This document shows positions 21,043 to 24,716 of a stretch of DNA of 64,000 nt, piece after piece (within the stretch, counting starts at the first letter, position 1; every line of letters begins with the position of its first letter). The notes under the pieces were generated by a model. It saw only the letters and a program-made list of their open reading frames with translations, was not told where the DNA came from and searched no databases. The position numbers were made by a program, and so were the translations under genes. Source of the DNA: Escherichia phage DCP2; sequence record OR780565.1; one strand, written 5' to 3'.

Positions 21043-21068
21043 GGGCTCTTTCCTGAGAGCCTTTGTTA
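21043..21068 (+). terminator. Rho-independent terminator-like hairpin
   Basis: ggctct-ttcctg-agagcc stem-loop followed by tttgtt. Confidence 0.4.
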
Positions 21069-21086
21069 ATAATTGGGAATCATATT

Positions 21087-21695
21087 ATGGATACTAAATT
21101 AGCTGAAATTTTTGAAGGAAAACATCCAAATTTTAGTACAGGAAAGCTGAAAGACAAAATAATAAAAGAAAATATTTTTCCATATGAGTGTGCAATTTGT
21201 AAAATTTCAAAATGGCAAAATAAGCATATTGTTCTGCAATTAGACCATATTGATGGAAATAACAAAAATCATCTTAAATCAAATTTAAGATTATTATGTC
21301 CAAATTGCCATTCGCAAACTGATACTTTTGCTGGTAAAAATATTAAAAATAATAAAAAGCGTTATAATGTTAGTGATGAAGAAATTTTAAACGCATTATT
21401 AAATTCGGCTACTATATCATCTGCAATTACTTCATTAGGTTTAAGTAAAGGCGGAAACTATAAAAGATTCATTAAAATTGCTAATGATAATAAATTATAT
21501 CATTTACTGGTAAATATTAATGAAAAGATTTTAACTGATGAAATTTACGAAGAATTAGTTAAAATCGATTATTCTAAATTTGGATGGGTTAGTAAAGCTG
21601 CTAAAATAATAGGTATAAGCCCACAAAAAGCTAGAAAATGGATAGAACGAAAATGTCCAGAATTGATAGAACAATCTTTTTCACGTAATAAATAA
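21087..21695 (+). mobile_element. Free-standing HNH homing endonuclease-like gene next to the tRNA array
   Basis: Cys-box plus HNH motif: CAICKI...LDHIDGNNKNH...NLRLLCPNCH. Confidence 0.7.
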
Positions 21696-21701
21696 TATAG
21701 A

Positions 21702-21788
21702 GCGAGAATGGTCAAATTGGTAAAGGCACAGCACTTAAAATGCTGCGGAATGATTTCCTTGTGGGTTCGAGTCCCACTTCTCGCACCA
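21702..21788 (+). tRNA. tRNA-Leu (anticodon TAA), CCA encoded
   Basis: Acceptor GCGAGAA/TTCTCGC, anticodon loop CTTAAAA, long variable arm, T-arm GGTTCGAGTCC. Confidence 0.85.
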
Positions 21789-21793
21789 AATTT

Positions 21794-21867
<74 letters not shown>

Positions 21868-21876
21868 ATTTAATTT

Positions 21877-21950
21877 ACTCCGTGTAGCTCAGTTTGGTAG
21901 AGCGCCTGATTTGGGATCAGGAGGTCCAAGGTTCAAATCCTTGTATGGAG
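21877..21950 (+). tRNA. tRNA-Pro (anticodon TGG)
   Basis: Anticodon stem-loop CCTGA-TTTGGGA-TCAGG, T-arm GGTTCAAATCC. Confidence 0.8.
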
Positions 21951-21952
21951 AC

Positions 21953-22043
21953 TGGAGGCGTGGCAGAGTGGTTTAATGCACCGGTCTTGAAAACCGGCAG
22001 TCGCTCCGGCGACTCATAGGTTCAAATCCTATCGCCTCCGCCA
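21953..22043 (+). tRNA. tRNA-Ser (anticodon TGA), CCA encoded
   Basis: Anticodon stem-loop CCGGT-CTTGAAA-ACCGG, long variable arm, T-arm GGTTCAAATCC. Confidence 0.85.
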
Positions 22044-22048
22044 GTTTT

Positions 22049-22124
22049 GCTGATTTAGCTCAGTAGGTAGAGCAACTCACTTGTAATGAGAAGGTCGGCG
22101 GTTCGATTCCGTCAATCAGCACCA
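22049..22124 (+). tRNA. tRNA-Thr (anticodon TGT), CCA encoded
   Basis: Acceptor GCTGATT/AATCAGC, anticodon loop CTTGTAA, T-arm GGTTCGATTCC. Confidence 0.85.
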
Positions 22125-22125
22125 A

Positions 22126-22200
22126 GGCCCTGTAGCTGGAAGGTTCAAGCAAGCGACTCATAATCGCCAGATGGTGGTTCAATTCCACCCAGGGCCACCA
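22126..22200 (+). tRNA. tRNA with anticodon CAT (Ile by analogy with T4, or Met), CCA encoded
   Basis: Acceptor GGCCCTG/CAGGGCC, anticodon loop CTCATAA, T-arm GGTTCAATTCC. Confidence 0.8.
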
Positions 22201-22209
22201 AATTAATTT

Positions 22210-22296
22210 GGGGAGTTATCCCGTAGAGGTAGCGGTGTGGACTGTAAATCCATTGTCATTGCGACTCGGGTGGTTCGACTCCACCACTCCCCACCA
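22210..22296 (+). tRNA. tRNA-Tyr (anticodon GTA), CCA encoded
   Basis: Acceptor GGGGAGT/ACTCCCC, anticodon loop CTGTAAA, long variable arm, T-arm GGTTCGACTCC. Confidence 0.8.
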
Positions 22297-22300
22297 ATTT

Positions 22301-22375
22301 GGATGTGTAGCTCAATGGCAGAGCGATCGCCTGTTAAGCGATTGGTTATAGGTTCGAATCCTATCACGTCCGCCA
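22301..22375 (+). tRNA. tRNA-Asn (anticodon GTT), CCA encoded
   Basis: Anticodon stem-loop TCGC-CTGTTAA-GCGA, T-arm GGTTCGAATCC. Confidence 0.85.
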
Positions 22376-22489
22376 AATTTGTGACAACTGTCACATTAAT
22401 ATCTACTTGACGCGATTATAGGGGTTGAACTGATCACTCTTCTCTTAATTTCGTGTGAAGACATCTTGATTGTTGGAGTAGGTATTAAT

Positions 22490-22565
22490 GTGGCCGTAGT
22501 TCAGTTGGTAGAACTCGAGATTGTGATTCTCGTAGTCATGGGTTCGACTCCCATCGGTCACCCCA
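22490..22565 (+). tRNA. tRNA-His (anticodon GTG), CCA encoded
   Basis: Extra 5' G pairing with discriminator C, anticodon stem-loop CGAGA-TTGTGAT-TCTCG, T-arm GGTTCGACTCC. Confidence 0.8.
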
Positions 22566-22569
22566 ATTA

Positions 22570-22645
22570 CGGGGCATAGCTCAGAAGGAAGAGCAAGGAC
22601 CTTCTAAGTCCTAGGTCGTAGGTTCGATCCCTACTGCCTCGACCA
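22570..22645 (+). tRNA. tRNA-Arg (anticodon TCT), CCA encoded
   Basis: Anticodon stem-loop GGAC-CTTCTAA-GTCC, T-arm GGTTCGATCCC. Confidence 0.85.
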
Positions 22646-22663
22646 ATTATAAGTGAGGAAAAT

Positions 22664-23014
22664 ATGAAAGGTAATGTTTATTTAGTAGTTCATGATTTAA
22701 CATTCTATTTTAATCATAATGATACTGTTATTTCTGAACGTGTAATTAATTTGCTTTATCAGCATGCAGATTATGTTTATGTCGAAAACGAATATGGTCA
22801 TTGGCAATTTCTCAAAAATCGTTCATTTGGTTTAGATGGTTACGAATATTTTGATCGTAAAGACCTTTTAGATACAATTCCGTTATCTACACAATATCAA
22901 AATCATAAGTCTTTACATAAATGCCGGCTAATTCGAAATGCTGAATCCGCGTATGAAGCAATTGATTTGTGGCGTAAACGCCGTGAATATATTGATTCTT
23001 TAAAAGAATATTAA
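22664..23014 (+). CDS. Hypothetical protein
   Basis: 116-aa ORF with SD gaggaaaat upstream, directly after tRNA-Arg. Confidence 0.5.
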   Translation: MKGNVYLVVHDLTFYFNHNDTVISERVINLLYQHADYVYVENEYGHWQFLKNRSFGLDGYEYFDRKDLLDTIPLSTQYQNHKSLHKCRLIRNAESAYEAIDLWRKRREYIDSLKEY

Positions 23015-23178
23015 GAAACCGGGTCGCTACCGGTAAGTCGTCGGACTGATGTTCCCTGGAGTATAGTTTCCTCCCACAGTTTTACTGTGTTCTGGCTCTT
23101 TACTATCACAGCAGAAACGGCGCACCGAATTATCGATTCGAGGAAATATCTTTGCCGTAAGCCGAGTAGCGTTTTTGA

Positions 23179-23270
23179 CGGAACGTTCGGATATGGTCGA
23201 GATATGGCCTTTTAAAAATATTGAGTAGCGTCAACTACTTAATAACCGGGTTCGAATCCCGGCGTTTCGT
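23179..23270 (+). ncRNA. Candidate tRNA-like structured RNA in a GC-rich non-coding stretch
   Basis: Canonical T-arm CCGGG-TTCGAAT-CCCGG; flanks CGGAACG/CGTTTCG can form a 7-bp acceptor stem; no clean D or anticodon arm found. Confidence 0.25.
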
Positions 23271-23322
23271 ACAAACACTTGCCTTAGCAGGTGGAACCCC
23301 GACAAGGTTGCCGCAAGGCTTA

Positions 23323-23349
23323 GCCCCGACCGAAAGGTTGGGGCTTTTT
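23323..23349 (+). terminator. Rho-independent terminator
   Basis: gccccgacc-gaaa-ggttggggc hairpin followed by ttttt; identical copy at 23880-23906. Confidence 0.7.
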
Positions 23350-23351
23350 GG

Positions 23352-23359
23352 TATAAATA
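23352..23359 (+). promoter_or_regulatory. Late promoter TATAAATA upstream of an internal-protein-like gene
   Basis: Exact TATAAATA 39 nt upstream of the ATG at 23398. Confidence 0.5.
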
Positions 23360-23397
23360 TTAGTATATTAAATCTACAAATTAAAACAGGAAATAAG

Positions 23398-23871
23398 ATG
23401 AAATCATATACTCAATTTTTAAATGAAGCGGTGTTAAATGAAGCATCTAGCACCGAAATTCAAGCTGTTGCAAAAGCTGCCATTGCCGCGGGTAAATATT
23501 CCTATAAAGATGCTTCTGATGAATCGCGATTCCAGTTTGCACGCGACATGAAAGCGGAAGGATTTACGGGAAATGCAGTTAGTATGGCCTGGAAAAGTTT
23601 AGTTGCTACTGGCGCTGCTTTTGCAAAGGCTTCGGGTAAACCTGCTCCTAAAGCAGATCCTAAAGCGGCACAAGAAAAAAATATCGTTAAAGGAATTATC
23701 GCTAAATATGAAGCTATCCTTAAAGAGCTTTTAGTAATCAAAACCGAAGGCCAAAAGTTAGCCCGTGCTTATAGTTTCAAAGATAATCCACATGTTCACT
23801 CTCTTGAGTATGTTGAAGACATCCAAAAAATTATTAAAGACCGCATTTGGTCTGCTAAACAAATCAAATGA
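23398..23871 (+). CDS. Internal-protein-like capsid-targeted protein
   Basis: Starts MKSYTQFLNEA (capsid-targeting leader pattern); the ORF-track start at 23221 is rejected. Confidence 0.6.
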   Translation: MKSYTQFLNEAVLNEASSTEIQAVAKAAIAAGKYSYKDASDESRFQFARDMKAEGFTGNAVSMAWKSLVATGAAFAKASGKPAPKADPKAAQEKNIVKGIIAKYEAILKELLVIKTEGQKLARAYSFKDNPHVHSLEYVEDIQKIIKDRIWSAKQIK

Positions 23872-23879
23872 CATTCTTA

Positions 23880-23906
23880 GCCCCGACCGAAAGGTTGGGG
23901 CTTTTT
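23880..23906 (+). terminator. Rho-independent terminator (second copy)
   Basis: Same gccccgacc-gaaa-ggttggggc-ttttt element as at 23323. Confidence 0.7.
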
Positions 23907-23996
23907 AGTTTGAATCACTCGGATAACGCTGTTACGGATAGTAACAAAGTAATAAATAATTAATAACCAACCGATAAATTATTTCAAGGATTTTAA

Positions 23997-24560
23997 ATGA
24001 AAACCTATGCCGAATTTTTAACCGAAGCAGCAAAATTACCATCTGAAGCAGATCTTACTAAAGTATTCTTCCAATTGGACCCAAAAGACCGCGGCGATTT
24101 TCTTAAGTGGAAAGCTAAAGCTATTGAAATGTACAACATCGATAATAGTTCTTTTACAATGAGTCAAGAAAATAAATTCAATAAAGCATTTTTCAAAATT
24201 TCTAAGAAATTGGCATCTGGCGCTCAGGTTCCTAAATCTGTGTTAGCTACTCCTGAACGCGCACCTGTTAAAATTTCTAAGAATATGTTCGACACTAAAA
24301 AATACGTTAATGCTTTGAATAAAGCTCTTGATGCATTGGATGATGCAAAGAAGGCAGCCCGCGATCTTCAAGACGTGTACACCGATTTTGACCGCAAAAC
24401 TAAAGGTTCTATTTCAAATAGCGAACGCAATAGTGTAAGTGTTTATTCTGATAGCCTTGATGTTCTTGGCGATGCGTATACTGAAATTAAAAATCGTATT
24501 AACACTGCATCTAAGCTAAAAGCTGCTGCAGAAGCTATAATAAGTAAACTAGGTAAATAA
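23997..24560 (+). CDS. Internal-protein-like capsid-targeted protein
   Basis: Starts MKTYAEFLTEA; 187 aa, Lys/Ala-rich. Confidence 0.6.
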   Translation: MKTYAEFLTEAAKLPSEADLTKVFFQLDPKDRGDFLKWKAKAIEMYNIDNSSFTMSQENKFNKAFFKISKKLASGAQVPKSVLATPERAPVKISKNMFDTKKYVNALNKALDALDDAKKAARDLQDVYTDFDRKTKGSISNSERNSVSVYSDSLDVLGDAYTEIKNRINTASKLKAAAEAIISKLGK

Positions 24561-24568
24561 TTTTAAAT

Positions 24569-24594
24569 CCCTATCTAAATGATAGGGCTTTTTG
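24569..24594 (+). terminator. Rho-independent terminator
   Basis: ccctatc-taaat-gataggg hairpin followed by ctttttgg. Confidence 0.65.
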
Positions 24595-24716
24595 GTATCT
24601 AGGCCTTTCTGGACCTCTCTAGGCATCATTTAGTTTATACCCTTTATAATATATTATCCTATCCTTTAATTGCCCATCCCTGCCCTAGAATTCCCTAAAA
24701 ATTTTTTCACAAAACT

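Follow-up and report, generated by a model that had tools for sequence, protein, structure and literature searches.

By its sequence and its place at the tail of a tRNA operon, a GC-rich stretch in the Escherichia phage DCP2 very likely encodes the local copies of two small stable RNAs of phage T4, rnaD and rnaC, the latter combining a tRNA-like top half with a body that is probably closed by a kissing loop. The stretch covers positions 23,015 to 23,322 of the window, the whole 64,000 nucleotides of DCP2 DNA (OR780565.1) that were analysed. Judged on sequence, it is the DCP2 version of T4 rnaD (species 2 RNA) and rnaC (species 1 RNA), a known feature and no new element. The T4 species 1 and 2 RNAs have been recognised since the 1970s. 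As a genome feature the pair is a rediscovery, ordinary for a T4-like genome and annotated in the T4 reference. The remaining interest lies in the structural model of rnaC and in its function; rnaC and rnaD are among the oldest phage RNAs without an assigned function. The comparative model of rnaC (acceptor stem, junction, kissing loop and tRNA slot), for which phages that naturally lack rnaC and carry only rnaD form part of the basis, makes the question of function directly testable.

Identity and setting of the two RNAs

A BLAST search with positions 23000–23360 matched 808 phage records, nearly all of them T4-like; the RB59 record names rnaD and rnaC at the place of the match. The T4 reference (NC_000866) lists "rnaD, small stable RNA, species 2" and "rnaC, species 1" after tRNA-Arg and before a terminator, and the original record of the tRNA region (X03016) carries the labels "species 2 RNA", "species 1 RNA" and a potential terminator. 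The window coordinates of both RNAs (Table 1) were transferred from NC_000866 via alignment. The window copy of rnaC is identical to that of T4 at 138 of 139 nt, with one base different, and it scores 167.5 bits (E = 4e-39) against covariance model R1, which equals the score of T4's own copy. Strand, gene order and predicted fold are the same, and there is no meaningful difference between the two phages in rnaC. The match to T4 rnaD has an nhmmer E-value of 9e-14: the 5' ~48 nt and the 3' ~30 nt are nearly identical, and rnaD occupies the same place beside rnaC, but in the central hairpin the DCP2 sequence differs from that of T4 and is shorter (116 vs 119 nt). DCP2 is also unlike T4 in having a 116-aa ORF between tRNA-Arg and rnaD and a tRNA set of the T2/RB3 type. 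Because rnaD overlaps the stop codon (23012–23014) of this ORF (22664–23014), its 5' end in DCP2 cannot come from 3' processing of tRNA-Arg.

RNAC and RNAD derive from the tRNA region, with biological roles called unknown (PMC3014915), and their function is so described in papers of 2010, 2022 and 2025 (PMC3014915, PMC9697503, PMC12685909). The operon transcript crosses the tRNA cluster and stops after the species I gene (PMC2330249). During T4 infection both RNAs accumulate late, and a northern blot confirms RNAC (PMC9697503); one oligo of the published probe is identical to window positions 23133–23190. The original prediction, made from the letters alone, had named the lack of a stable transcript as evidence against a structured RNA, and for the T4 copy such a transcript is documented (PMC9697503). 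That prediction took the stretch for a tRNA-like non-coding RNA, a processing substrate or a decayed tRNA. The first two descriptions were right in kind for a part of the stretch, which does lie in a tRNA operon, but there are two RNAs here, not one. It had also mentioned, to the point, that T4 encodes two small stable RNAs in its tRNA region, but did not recognise the stretch as rnaD and rnaC.

The unusual composition that had drawn attention to the stretch is real: G+C is 0.455–0.46 over 23000–23300, against 0.29–0.34 in the upstream ORF and 0.38–0.41 downstream, and stands at the same level as in the tRNA cluster (0.43–0.53). Between the stop codon at 23014 and the terminator, the only ORFs are of 32–42 aa, together with a TTG-started frame from 23221 that had been read, correctly, as an upstream extension of the gene with its ATG at 23398. 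That the stretch encodes protein, either in a small ORF at 23087–23215 or in this 5' extension, has a negligible probability. The 42-aa ORF and the extension both exist, but the former covers the lineage-variable centre of rnaD and the spacer between rnaD and rnaC, and homologues differ from one another by compensatory substitutions in pairs and by indels of one nucleotide. As for the extension, a terminator and a T4 late-promoter motif (TATAAATA at 23352, after the terminator) stand before the ATG at 23398, and phrog_2280 matches the gene from this ATG, at residue 1. The terminator had been expected just after the stretch, and an intrinsic terminator was indeed found there, called at 23322–23345, and its position agrees with that of the potential terminator in X03016. 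The gene order is tRNA cluster, rnaD, rnaC and terminator, with rnaC distal as in T4. The two RNAs form the last part of the tRNA operon transcript, from which they would then be cut as stable structured RNAs.

Table 1. Positions in the window of the rnaD and rnaC homologues, their structural parts and the neighbouring operon features
Feature	Position	Strand	Remarks
Upstream cluster, ten tRNA genes	21702–22645	+	shares transcription unit with rnaD and rnaC
rnaD homologue (T4 species 2 RNA)	23011–23126	+	mapped from NC_000866 71053–71171
rnaC homologue (T4 species 1 RNA)	23133–23271	+	NC_000866 boundaries (70908–71046)
rnaC with X03016 boundaries	23134–23270	+	137 nt, acceptor nucleotide 1 to discriminator U
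Acceptor stem, 5' strand CGAUUCG	23134–23140	+	predicted 7-bp pairing with CGUUUCG 23263–23269
Long arm	23141–23210	+	~26 bp broken by bulges; terminal loop UUGACG 23175–23180
Putative kissing loop 1, UUGACG	23175–23180	+	complementary to loop 2, CGUCAA 23229–23234
Hairpin 2	23219–23244	+	10-bp stem, 6-nt loop CGUCAA 23229–23234
T-arm CCGGG-UUCGAAU-CCCGG	23246–23262	+	5-bp stem, canonical T-loop; runs straight into acceptor 3' strand
Acceptor 3' strand CGUUUCG and discriminator U	23263–23270	+	genome continues ACAA
Trailer hairpin CACUUGC-CUUA-GCAGGUG	23276–23293	+	from whole-region fold; between rnaC and terminator
Intrinsic terminator of the tRNA/stable-RNA operon	23322–23350	+	10-bp stem, GAAA loop, U run

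For rnaD, 14 homologues were aligned and compared. It starts with a hairpin, P1 (23018–23034), followed by a closing stem, P2 (23037–23043 with 23118–23125). The homologues conserve ~48 nt at the 5' end and ~30 nt at the 3' end, whereas the sequence in between is exchanged from lineage to lineage. P1 covaries; the central hairpin, P3, varies in sequence and length and covaries at its base. The closing stem (GUCGUCG/CGGCGCAC) and the internal-loop core (AAGUCGUCGRACUGANGUUCCCUG ... UCACAGCNGAARCGGCGCA) are both invariant, and by itself rnaD folds no better than shuffled sequences (z = -0.19). rnaD is modelled as a module of its own, with P1 and P3 as its hairpins, the second of them variable, and with a closing stem and core whose invariance leaves no covariation signal. 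It occurs without rnaC in Dhakavirus VR5, Yersinia phage P8 and Vequintavirinae phage A7_1, which argues that the two RNAs are independent modules; in VR5 and A7_1 it follows directly after a tRNA. VR5 lacks rnaC cleanly: its rnaD is followed directly by the trailer hairpin and terminator that the phages share, so that rnaC is dispensable in nature.

Some apparent likenesses of rnaD were considered and rejected. Its core (CUGAUG ... GAAAC) was examined as a hammerhead or k-turn, but has no stem I, no cleavage site and no match to an Rfam ribozyme. P1 was weighed as a T-arm mimic, its stem having 5 bp and its loop (GUCGCUA) 7 nt, but a tRNA minihelix would need it on the other side of the closing stem. 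A pairing of the rnaD loop with UAGCG in rnaC spans only 5 nt, is not kept in rnaD variants and was treated as chance.

The fold of rnaC and its tRNA-like top half

Homologues of rnaC were collected from GenBank (Tequatro-, Mosig-, Kanagawa-, Winkler-, Teguna-, Moon-, Karam-, Gelderland- and Marfavirus, and unclassified Straboviridae) and from IMG/VR and metagenome contigs. A covariance model made from seven of them recovered all copies at E <= 5e-17; the resulting alignment (A7) covers at least ten genera with its 36 copies, of which 34 are distinct sequences. Its consensus folds around a four-way junction that joins an acceptor stem, the long arm (~26 bp), a hairpin of 10 bp and a T-arm. In A7, 93.3% of the cells are standard pairs, against 35–46% when the partners are slid, and compensatory change is found in 36 of the 53 pairs; none of 500 shuffles reached the observed values. 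An earlier alignment of 19 sequences gave a similar covariation result. The window copy folds at z = -4.56 relative to shuffles, and single-sequence folding of 12 of the 34 distinct homologues gives the same architecture in 10, divergent ones included, but not in the other two (L008 and L131). The length of the homologues is 142–146 nt throughout, even where the sequence of the arm has become unrecognisably different. A fold that is maintained by compensatory changes over at least ten genera points to purifying selection and thus to a functional RNA. The comparison across related phages that had been proposed at the outset therefore came out in favour of a structured RNA, with a conserved four-way junction in the 34 distinct homologues; the conserved structure whose absence was to count against the proposal is present among homologous loci.

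In the acceptor stem, pairs 2 and 3 covary (G-C/A-U), and the centre has two U.U mismatches in most phages. Tegunavirus has U-A and C-G at these two positions, and Yersinia phage MHG19, read by eye, has C-G and U.G. The long arm begins with a 3-bp junction helix (AGG 23141–43 with CCU 23208–10), the CCU being preceded by an unpaired GG (23206–07). Past this helix, all 22 pairs of the arm vary, 20 of them in a compensatory manner, and its distal helix (model positions 40–43/50–53) is 99.3% paired, with compensatory change in all four pairs. A linker of 10 nt, rich in A and U, connects the long arm to hairpin 2, where X03016 marks a "pot. stem-loop structure" and where 9 of the 10 stem pairs show compensatory change. 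One unpaired nucleotide separates hairpin 2 from the T-arm, the stem of which is 100% paired in A7, with two covarying pairs.

The T-arm had been placed exactly by the original prediction, and it sits at the 3' end of rnaC. The acceptor stem had not: its 5' strand was given as CGGAACG (23179–85), paired with 23263–69. These segments do pair in this one sequence, but over the 34 homologues only 81.9% of cells are paired, against a shuffle mean of 84.1%, with a single compensatory cell, and CGGAACG belongs instead to a hairpin within the long arm, of which it forms the 3' strand. The partner of 23263–69 that covariation supports is 23134–40.

How much of a tRNA is there in rnaC? Within the 64-kb window, GGTTCGAATCC with at most one mismatch occurs eight times, against 0.63 expected; seven of the eight copies lie inside called tRNAs, and the eighth is the T-arm of rnaC. 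The 7-bp acceptor stem and the adjoining 5-bp T-stem with its T-loop are present and both covary. There is no cloverleaf, since the consensus has a long arm and a hairpin with a 6-nt loop, and neither a D arm nor an anticodon arm. The species 1 feature of X03016 (4741–4877) corresponds to model positions 3–139, which begin at the first base of the acceptor stem and end at the discriminator U, and thus species 1 has the ends of a tRNA without CCA, acceptor nucleotide 1 and the discriminator. No CCA is encoded after the discriminator of DCP2 rnaC (ACAA follows), and among the rnaC copies it is found only in Marfavirus. In six genera (Karam-, Kanagawa-, Moon-, Gelderland-, Winkler- and Tegunavirus), the preceding tRNA stops 6–7 nt ahead of nucleotide 1 of rnaC, and the following tRNA begins 6–12 nt past the discriminator; with this tRNA-like spacing on either side, rnaC occupies a tRNA slot in the phage arrays.

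From the slot and the tRNA-like ends we infer that rnaC is excised by the tRNA-processing enzymes of the host. RNase P would cut the 5' end, and the 3' end would be trimmed, possibly with subsequent addition of CCA. The classical T4 papers reportedly describe a mature species 1 RNA of 140 nt, a precursor called "p2Sp1" and cleavage of the long arm by RNase III, with which this proposal is consistent. A possible elbow contact involves the unpaired GG before the CCU, which co-occurs with the T-loop UUCGAAU; in three sequences from two genera the dinucleotide is CG instead, and the T-loop is UGCAUSC. As far as these sequences go, the co-variation hints at a contact like that between the D-loop and T-loop at the elbow of tRNA.

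The same features could be expected of a decayed tRNA gene, carried neutrally in the tRNA cluster: there is a canonical T-arm and an acceptor stem with no D or anticodon arm, annotation pipelines label rnaC as tRNA-OTHER, tRNA-Lys or tRNA-Phe, and there is a weak, 17-bit match to tRNA-Sec. Such a pseudogene, which was among the readings first offered, is highly improbable. It is contradicted by the 36 compensatory pairs in at least ten genera and by the steady length of rnaC, its co-evolving loops and the accumulation of the T4 copy as a stable RNA (PMC9697503).

A less extreme alternative is that rnaC acts in cis, as a module for folding, processing or 3' protection that aids the neighbouring tRNAs and has no role once it has been excised. 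Without exception it lies inside a tRNA array or closes one, spaced like a tRNA, and in T4 and in the window it is the last structured RNA ahead of the terminator. On the other hand, rnaC of Karam-, Moon-, Gelderland- and Winklervirus has tRNAs on both sides and is not at the 3' end, VR5 retains its tRNAs and rnaD without rnaC, and a co-evolving kissing loop together with a long arm of fixed length exceeds what a processing signal needs. We regard a purely cis-acting role as unlikely.

Two further ways of reading rnaC as a tRNA were rejected. Hairpin 2 does not mimic an anticodon arm (with GUC as the anticodon), since its loop sequence shifts together with loop 1 in three lineages; the pairing is conserved, not an anticodon. 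Nor does rnaC appear to have an aminoacylation identity: the stem carries no known set of E. coli acceptor-stem identity elements (no G3:U70, no G-1, and a U73 outside a Gly or Cys context).

Complementary loops in the body of rnaC

The loops of the long arm and of hairpin 2 are exact reverse complements of each other, with all six pairs 100% paired in the 34 distinct sequences. Three of the six positions change, in three lineages, and each change is matched on the opposite side. Most phages have UUGACG in loop 1 and CGUCAA in loop 2; the combination is UUGAUG/CAUCAA in Tegunavirus, UUGGCG/CGCCAA in Marfavirus and UUAGCG/CGCUAA in Yersinia phage MHG19. Complementary loops that covary in this manner indicate a kissing loop, so far as can be read from aligned sequences. 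A first pattern scan of IMG/VR for further loop haplotypes returned mostly chance matches. A stricter pattern gave 43 IMG/VR stretches (of 36 loci newly fetched, the covariance model confirmed 10) and 18 metagenome stretches (13 confirmed); this search of IMG/VR and metagenomes found no further loop haplotype and no rnaC outside the T4-like phages of Enterobacterales hosts.

Judged by helix lengths, intramolecular closure of rnaC by the kissing loop looks possible. A putative closure stack would comprise hairpin 2 (10 bp), the kissing helix (6) and the distal helix (6), together ~22 bp, and the remaining ~20 bp of the long arm could run back alongside it, following a bulge in the 5' strand whose position is conserved. 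Closed in this way, the body of rnaC would be a compact, nuclease-resistant fold of two stacks.

Kissing complexes are known from several systems, including ColE1 RNA I/II, TAR-TAR*, HIV DIS and ROOL/GOLLD, among which TAR-TAR* likewise has two hairpin loops with full 6-nt Watson-Crick complementarity; in rnaC, both loops are in one small, tRNA-like RNA. Kissing loops also hold together the assemblies of ROOL and GOLLD, large RNAs associated with phages. Similarly, the rnaC loops might pair between molecules, giving head-to-tail dimers or higher assemblies. The covariation of loop 1 with loop 2 suits pairing between molecules as well as pairing within one, and the abundance of T4 RNAC late in infection (PMC9697503) was counted in favour of multimers. 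However, the helix counts (a stack of ~22 bp, a return of ~20 bp and a bulge at the turn) suggest that a single molecule could close, and pairing inside one molecule is entropically favoured. Assembly of this kind is accordingly given a low probability, and closure within one molecule is preferred.

The loops also bear on whether rnaC could be a trans-acting sRNA that base-pairs with host or phage mRNAs, through the single-stranded linker (UUUUAAAAAUA) or through the loops themselves. RNAC and RNAD have been termed "small regulatory RNAs" (PMC9697503), and the AAAAU of the linker is invariant. This role is nevertheless very unlikely because the rnaC loops track each other and not a fixed external target; in addition, the linker is low-complexity A/U sequence, and the T-arm and acceptor features would be left unexplained.

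Related RNA families and a possible role

ARAGORN called ten tRNAs in the window, none of them in the stretch of rnaD and rnaC, and no tmRNA. At gathering scores, Rfam likewise found only the ten tRNAs in the window. At E <= 10 over 22600–23450, there was no match of RF00005, tmRNA or RF02553 over rnaC; the best match over the T-arm was to tRNA-Sec (23178–23270), at 17 bits against a gathering score of 47, and its alignment relies on the non-conserved pairing of 23179–85 with 23263–69. Four loci with divergent homologues, searched at E <= 1, gave nothing over rnaC. No Rfam family thus matches rnaC or rnaD in these searches, and the Rfam scan that the original prediction had suggested for the region returned no family over rnaC beyond the 17-bit tRNA-Sec alignment.

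Likenesses can nonetheless be drawn to three kinds of RNA. With canonical tRNA (RF00005), rnaC shares the 7-bp acceptor stem on a 5-bp T-stem, the UUCGAAU loop, the ends at nucleotide 1 and the discriminator, the slot in the array and possibly a contact of the GG with the T-loop at the elbow. It differs in lacking a D stem-loop and an anticodon arm, in being 137 nt long vs ~76, in its two U.U mismatches in the acceptor stem and in having no encoded CCA. Like tmRNA, it places the top half of a tRNA (acceptor stem and T-arm) on a body that is not tRNA-like, but that body is a kissing-loop pair in rnaC and a P2 helix with an mRNA-like domain in tmRNA; rnaC has no tag reading frame, none of the tmRNA pseudoknots and no G3:U70. 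YrlA is said to carry a tRNA-mimicking module, as described by Chen et al. in 2014. The YrlA or Y RNA-like RNAs (RF02553), some of them encoded by phages, resemble rnaC as non-coding RNAs with tRNA mimicry of the T-arm and acceptor type. In YrlA, however, the tRNA-like part lies inside the molecule and the two ends make up the stem that binds Ro, whereas the ends of rnaC are the acceptor stem.

Why would a phage maintain such an RNA? The likeliest answer, though put forward tentatively, is that rnaC mimics the top half of a tRNA and thereby occupies or diverts a factor that binds the acceptor end or the elbow of tRNAs. Candidates for this factor would be an enzyme with which the host processes or modifies its RNAs, or a defence nuclease that attacks tRNAs. 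Such a role would depend on the host and be dispensable on laboratory hosts. A convergent SNP arose in rnaD during adaptation of the T4-like phage BW-1 to E. coli ECOR34 (PMC12685909), and this change and the absence of rnaC from VR5 were counted as indirect support for a host-dependent role. More speculatively, and with a lower probability again, rnaC might be the founder of a class of phage tRNA mimics that has not been described before. Such mimics would set a genuine tRNA top half, elbow included, on a body that the co-evolving kissing loop closes or multimerises, and would act as decoys or sponges for a reader of the acceptor end or elbow. Examples of the targets would be a tRNA-targeting anti-phage nuclease, a nucleotidyltransferase toxin, RNase P or the CCA-adding enzyme. 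If true, this would explain why rnaC is dispensable in laboratory hosts and yet conserved across the T4-like phages of enterobacteria.

Several GenBank records mislabel rnaC, either under the tRNA names already mentioned ("tRNA-OTHER", "tRNA-Lys" or "tRNA-Phe") or by overlaying hypothetical proteins. Curated covariance models, for which the comparative model would be a basis, would mend this mis-annotation of rnaC.

Loss and spread of the stable RNAs

The stable RNAs rnaC and rnaD (homologues of T4 species 1 and species 2 RNA) are not inseparable. In the Dhakavirus VR5 (phage vB_EcoM-VR5), comparison with window 23095-23365 shows that rnaD is still followed by the trailer hairpin and terminator, while rnaC is cleanly absent from the interval between rnaD and the trailer. 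This locus is an rnaC deletion occurring in nature. An rnaD-like RNA with an identical invariant core is also found in Escherichia phage A7_1, a member of the Vequintavirinae that is not T4-like, where it lies immediately 3' of a tRNA-Met; rnaD is therefore a mobile module in itself. (A more divergent copy occurs in Marfavirus phages.)

Most T4-like GenBank records annotate neither RNA. In others, annotation pipelines have mislabelled rnaC as "tRNA-OTHER", "tRNA-Lys" or "tRNA-Phe", or have annotated hypothetical proteins across rnaC and rnaD; the tabulated examples are accompanied by many further records.

Features of the DCP2 window and of related loci
Feature	Position	Remarks
HNH homing-endonuclease ORF	window 21063-21695	phrog_14736, E = 6e-124
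tRNA-Tyr	window 22210-22296	
tRNA-Asn/tRNA-His spacer	window 22376-22489	114 nt
116-aa ORF	window 22664-23014	phrog_3355, function unassigned
Terminator plus flank, copies 1 and 2	window 23319-23358; 23876-23915	93% identity
Terminator plus flank, third copy	window 24563-24602	weaker
Paralogous gene pair	window 23398-23871; 23997-24560	both phrog_2280, function unassigned
VR5 locus	L135 1201-1440	
A7_1 rnaD-like RNA	L137 1201-1304	
Marfavirus rnaD copy	L131, about 2003-2082	
Mis-annotation examples	NC_054920 69609-69704; OQ599310 158266-158359; OK210076 56863-56938	

Organization of the tRNA array

At the site where T4 has tRNA-Gln, DCP2 has the HNH homing-endonuclease ORF, which ends 6 nt upstream of tRNA-Leu, and no tRNA-Gln, intact or remnant, was detectable within the 64-kb window. 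In T4, tRNA-Arg abuts rnaD, whereas in DCP2 the two are separated by the 116-aa ORF, whose counterpart at the equivalent RB69 position is RB69ORF150c. The stop codon of this ORF overlaps the position of the rnaD 5' end, and DCP2 must therefore generate that end differently than T4. Within the array, nine of the tRNAs reach 59-74 bits against RF00005; tRNA-Tyr falls far short of this, with only 30.3 bits (gathering score 29).

Shuffled versions of the tRNA-Asn/tRNA-His spacer fold far less well than the spacer itself (z = -4.36). Its conservation extends to 355 phage records, among them those of Klebsiella and Enterobacter T4-likes, which are about 82% identical. At loci with inspected flanks, the homologues adjoin tRNA-His on its 5' side. 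RNAalifold gives a 17-bp closing stem, the 3' strand of which extends into tRNA-His bases 1-3 (GUG), and five pairs show compensatory change. Rfam yielded no family for the spacer at gathering score; it could be a leader of tRNA-His or a further structured RNA beside rnaC and rnaD.

The repeated terminator

The terminator and its flank recur behind the two paralogous phrog_2280 genes, and gene plus terminator looks like a duplicated cassette.
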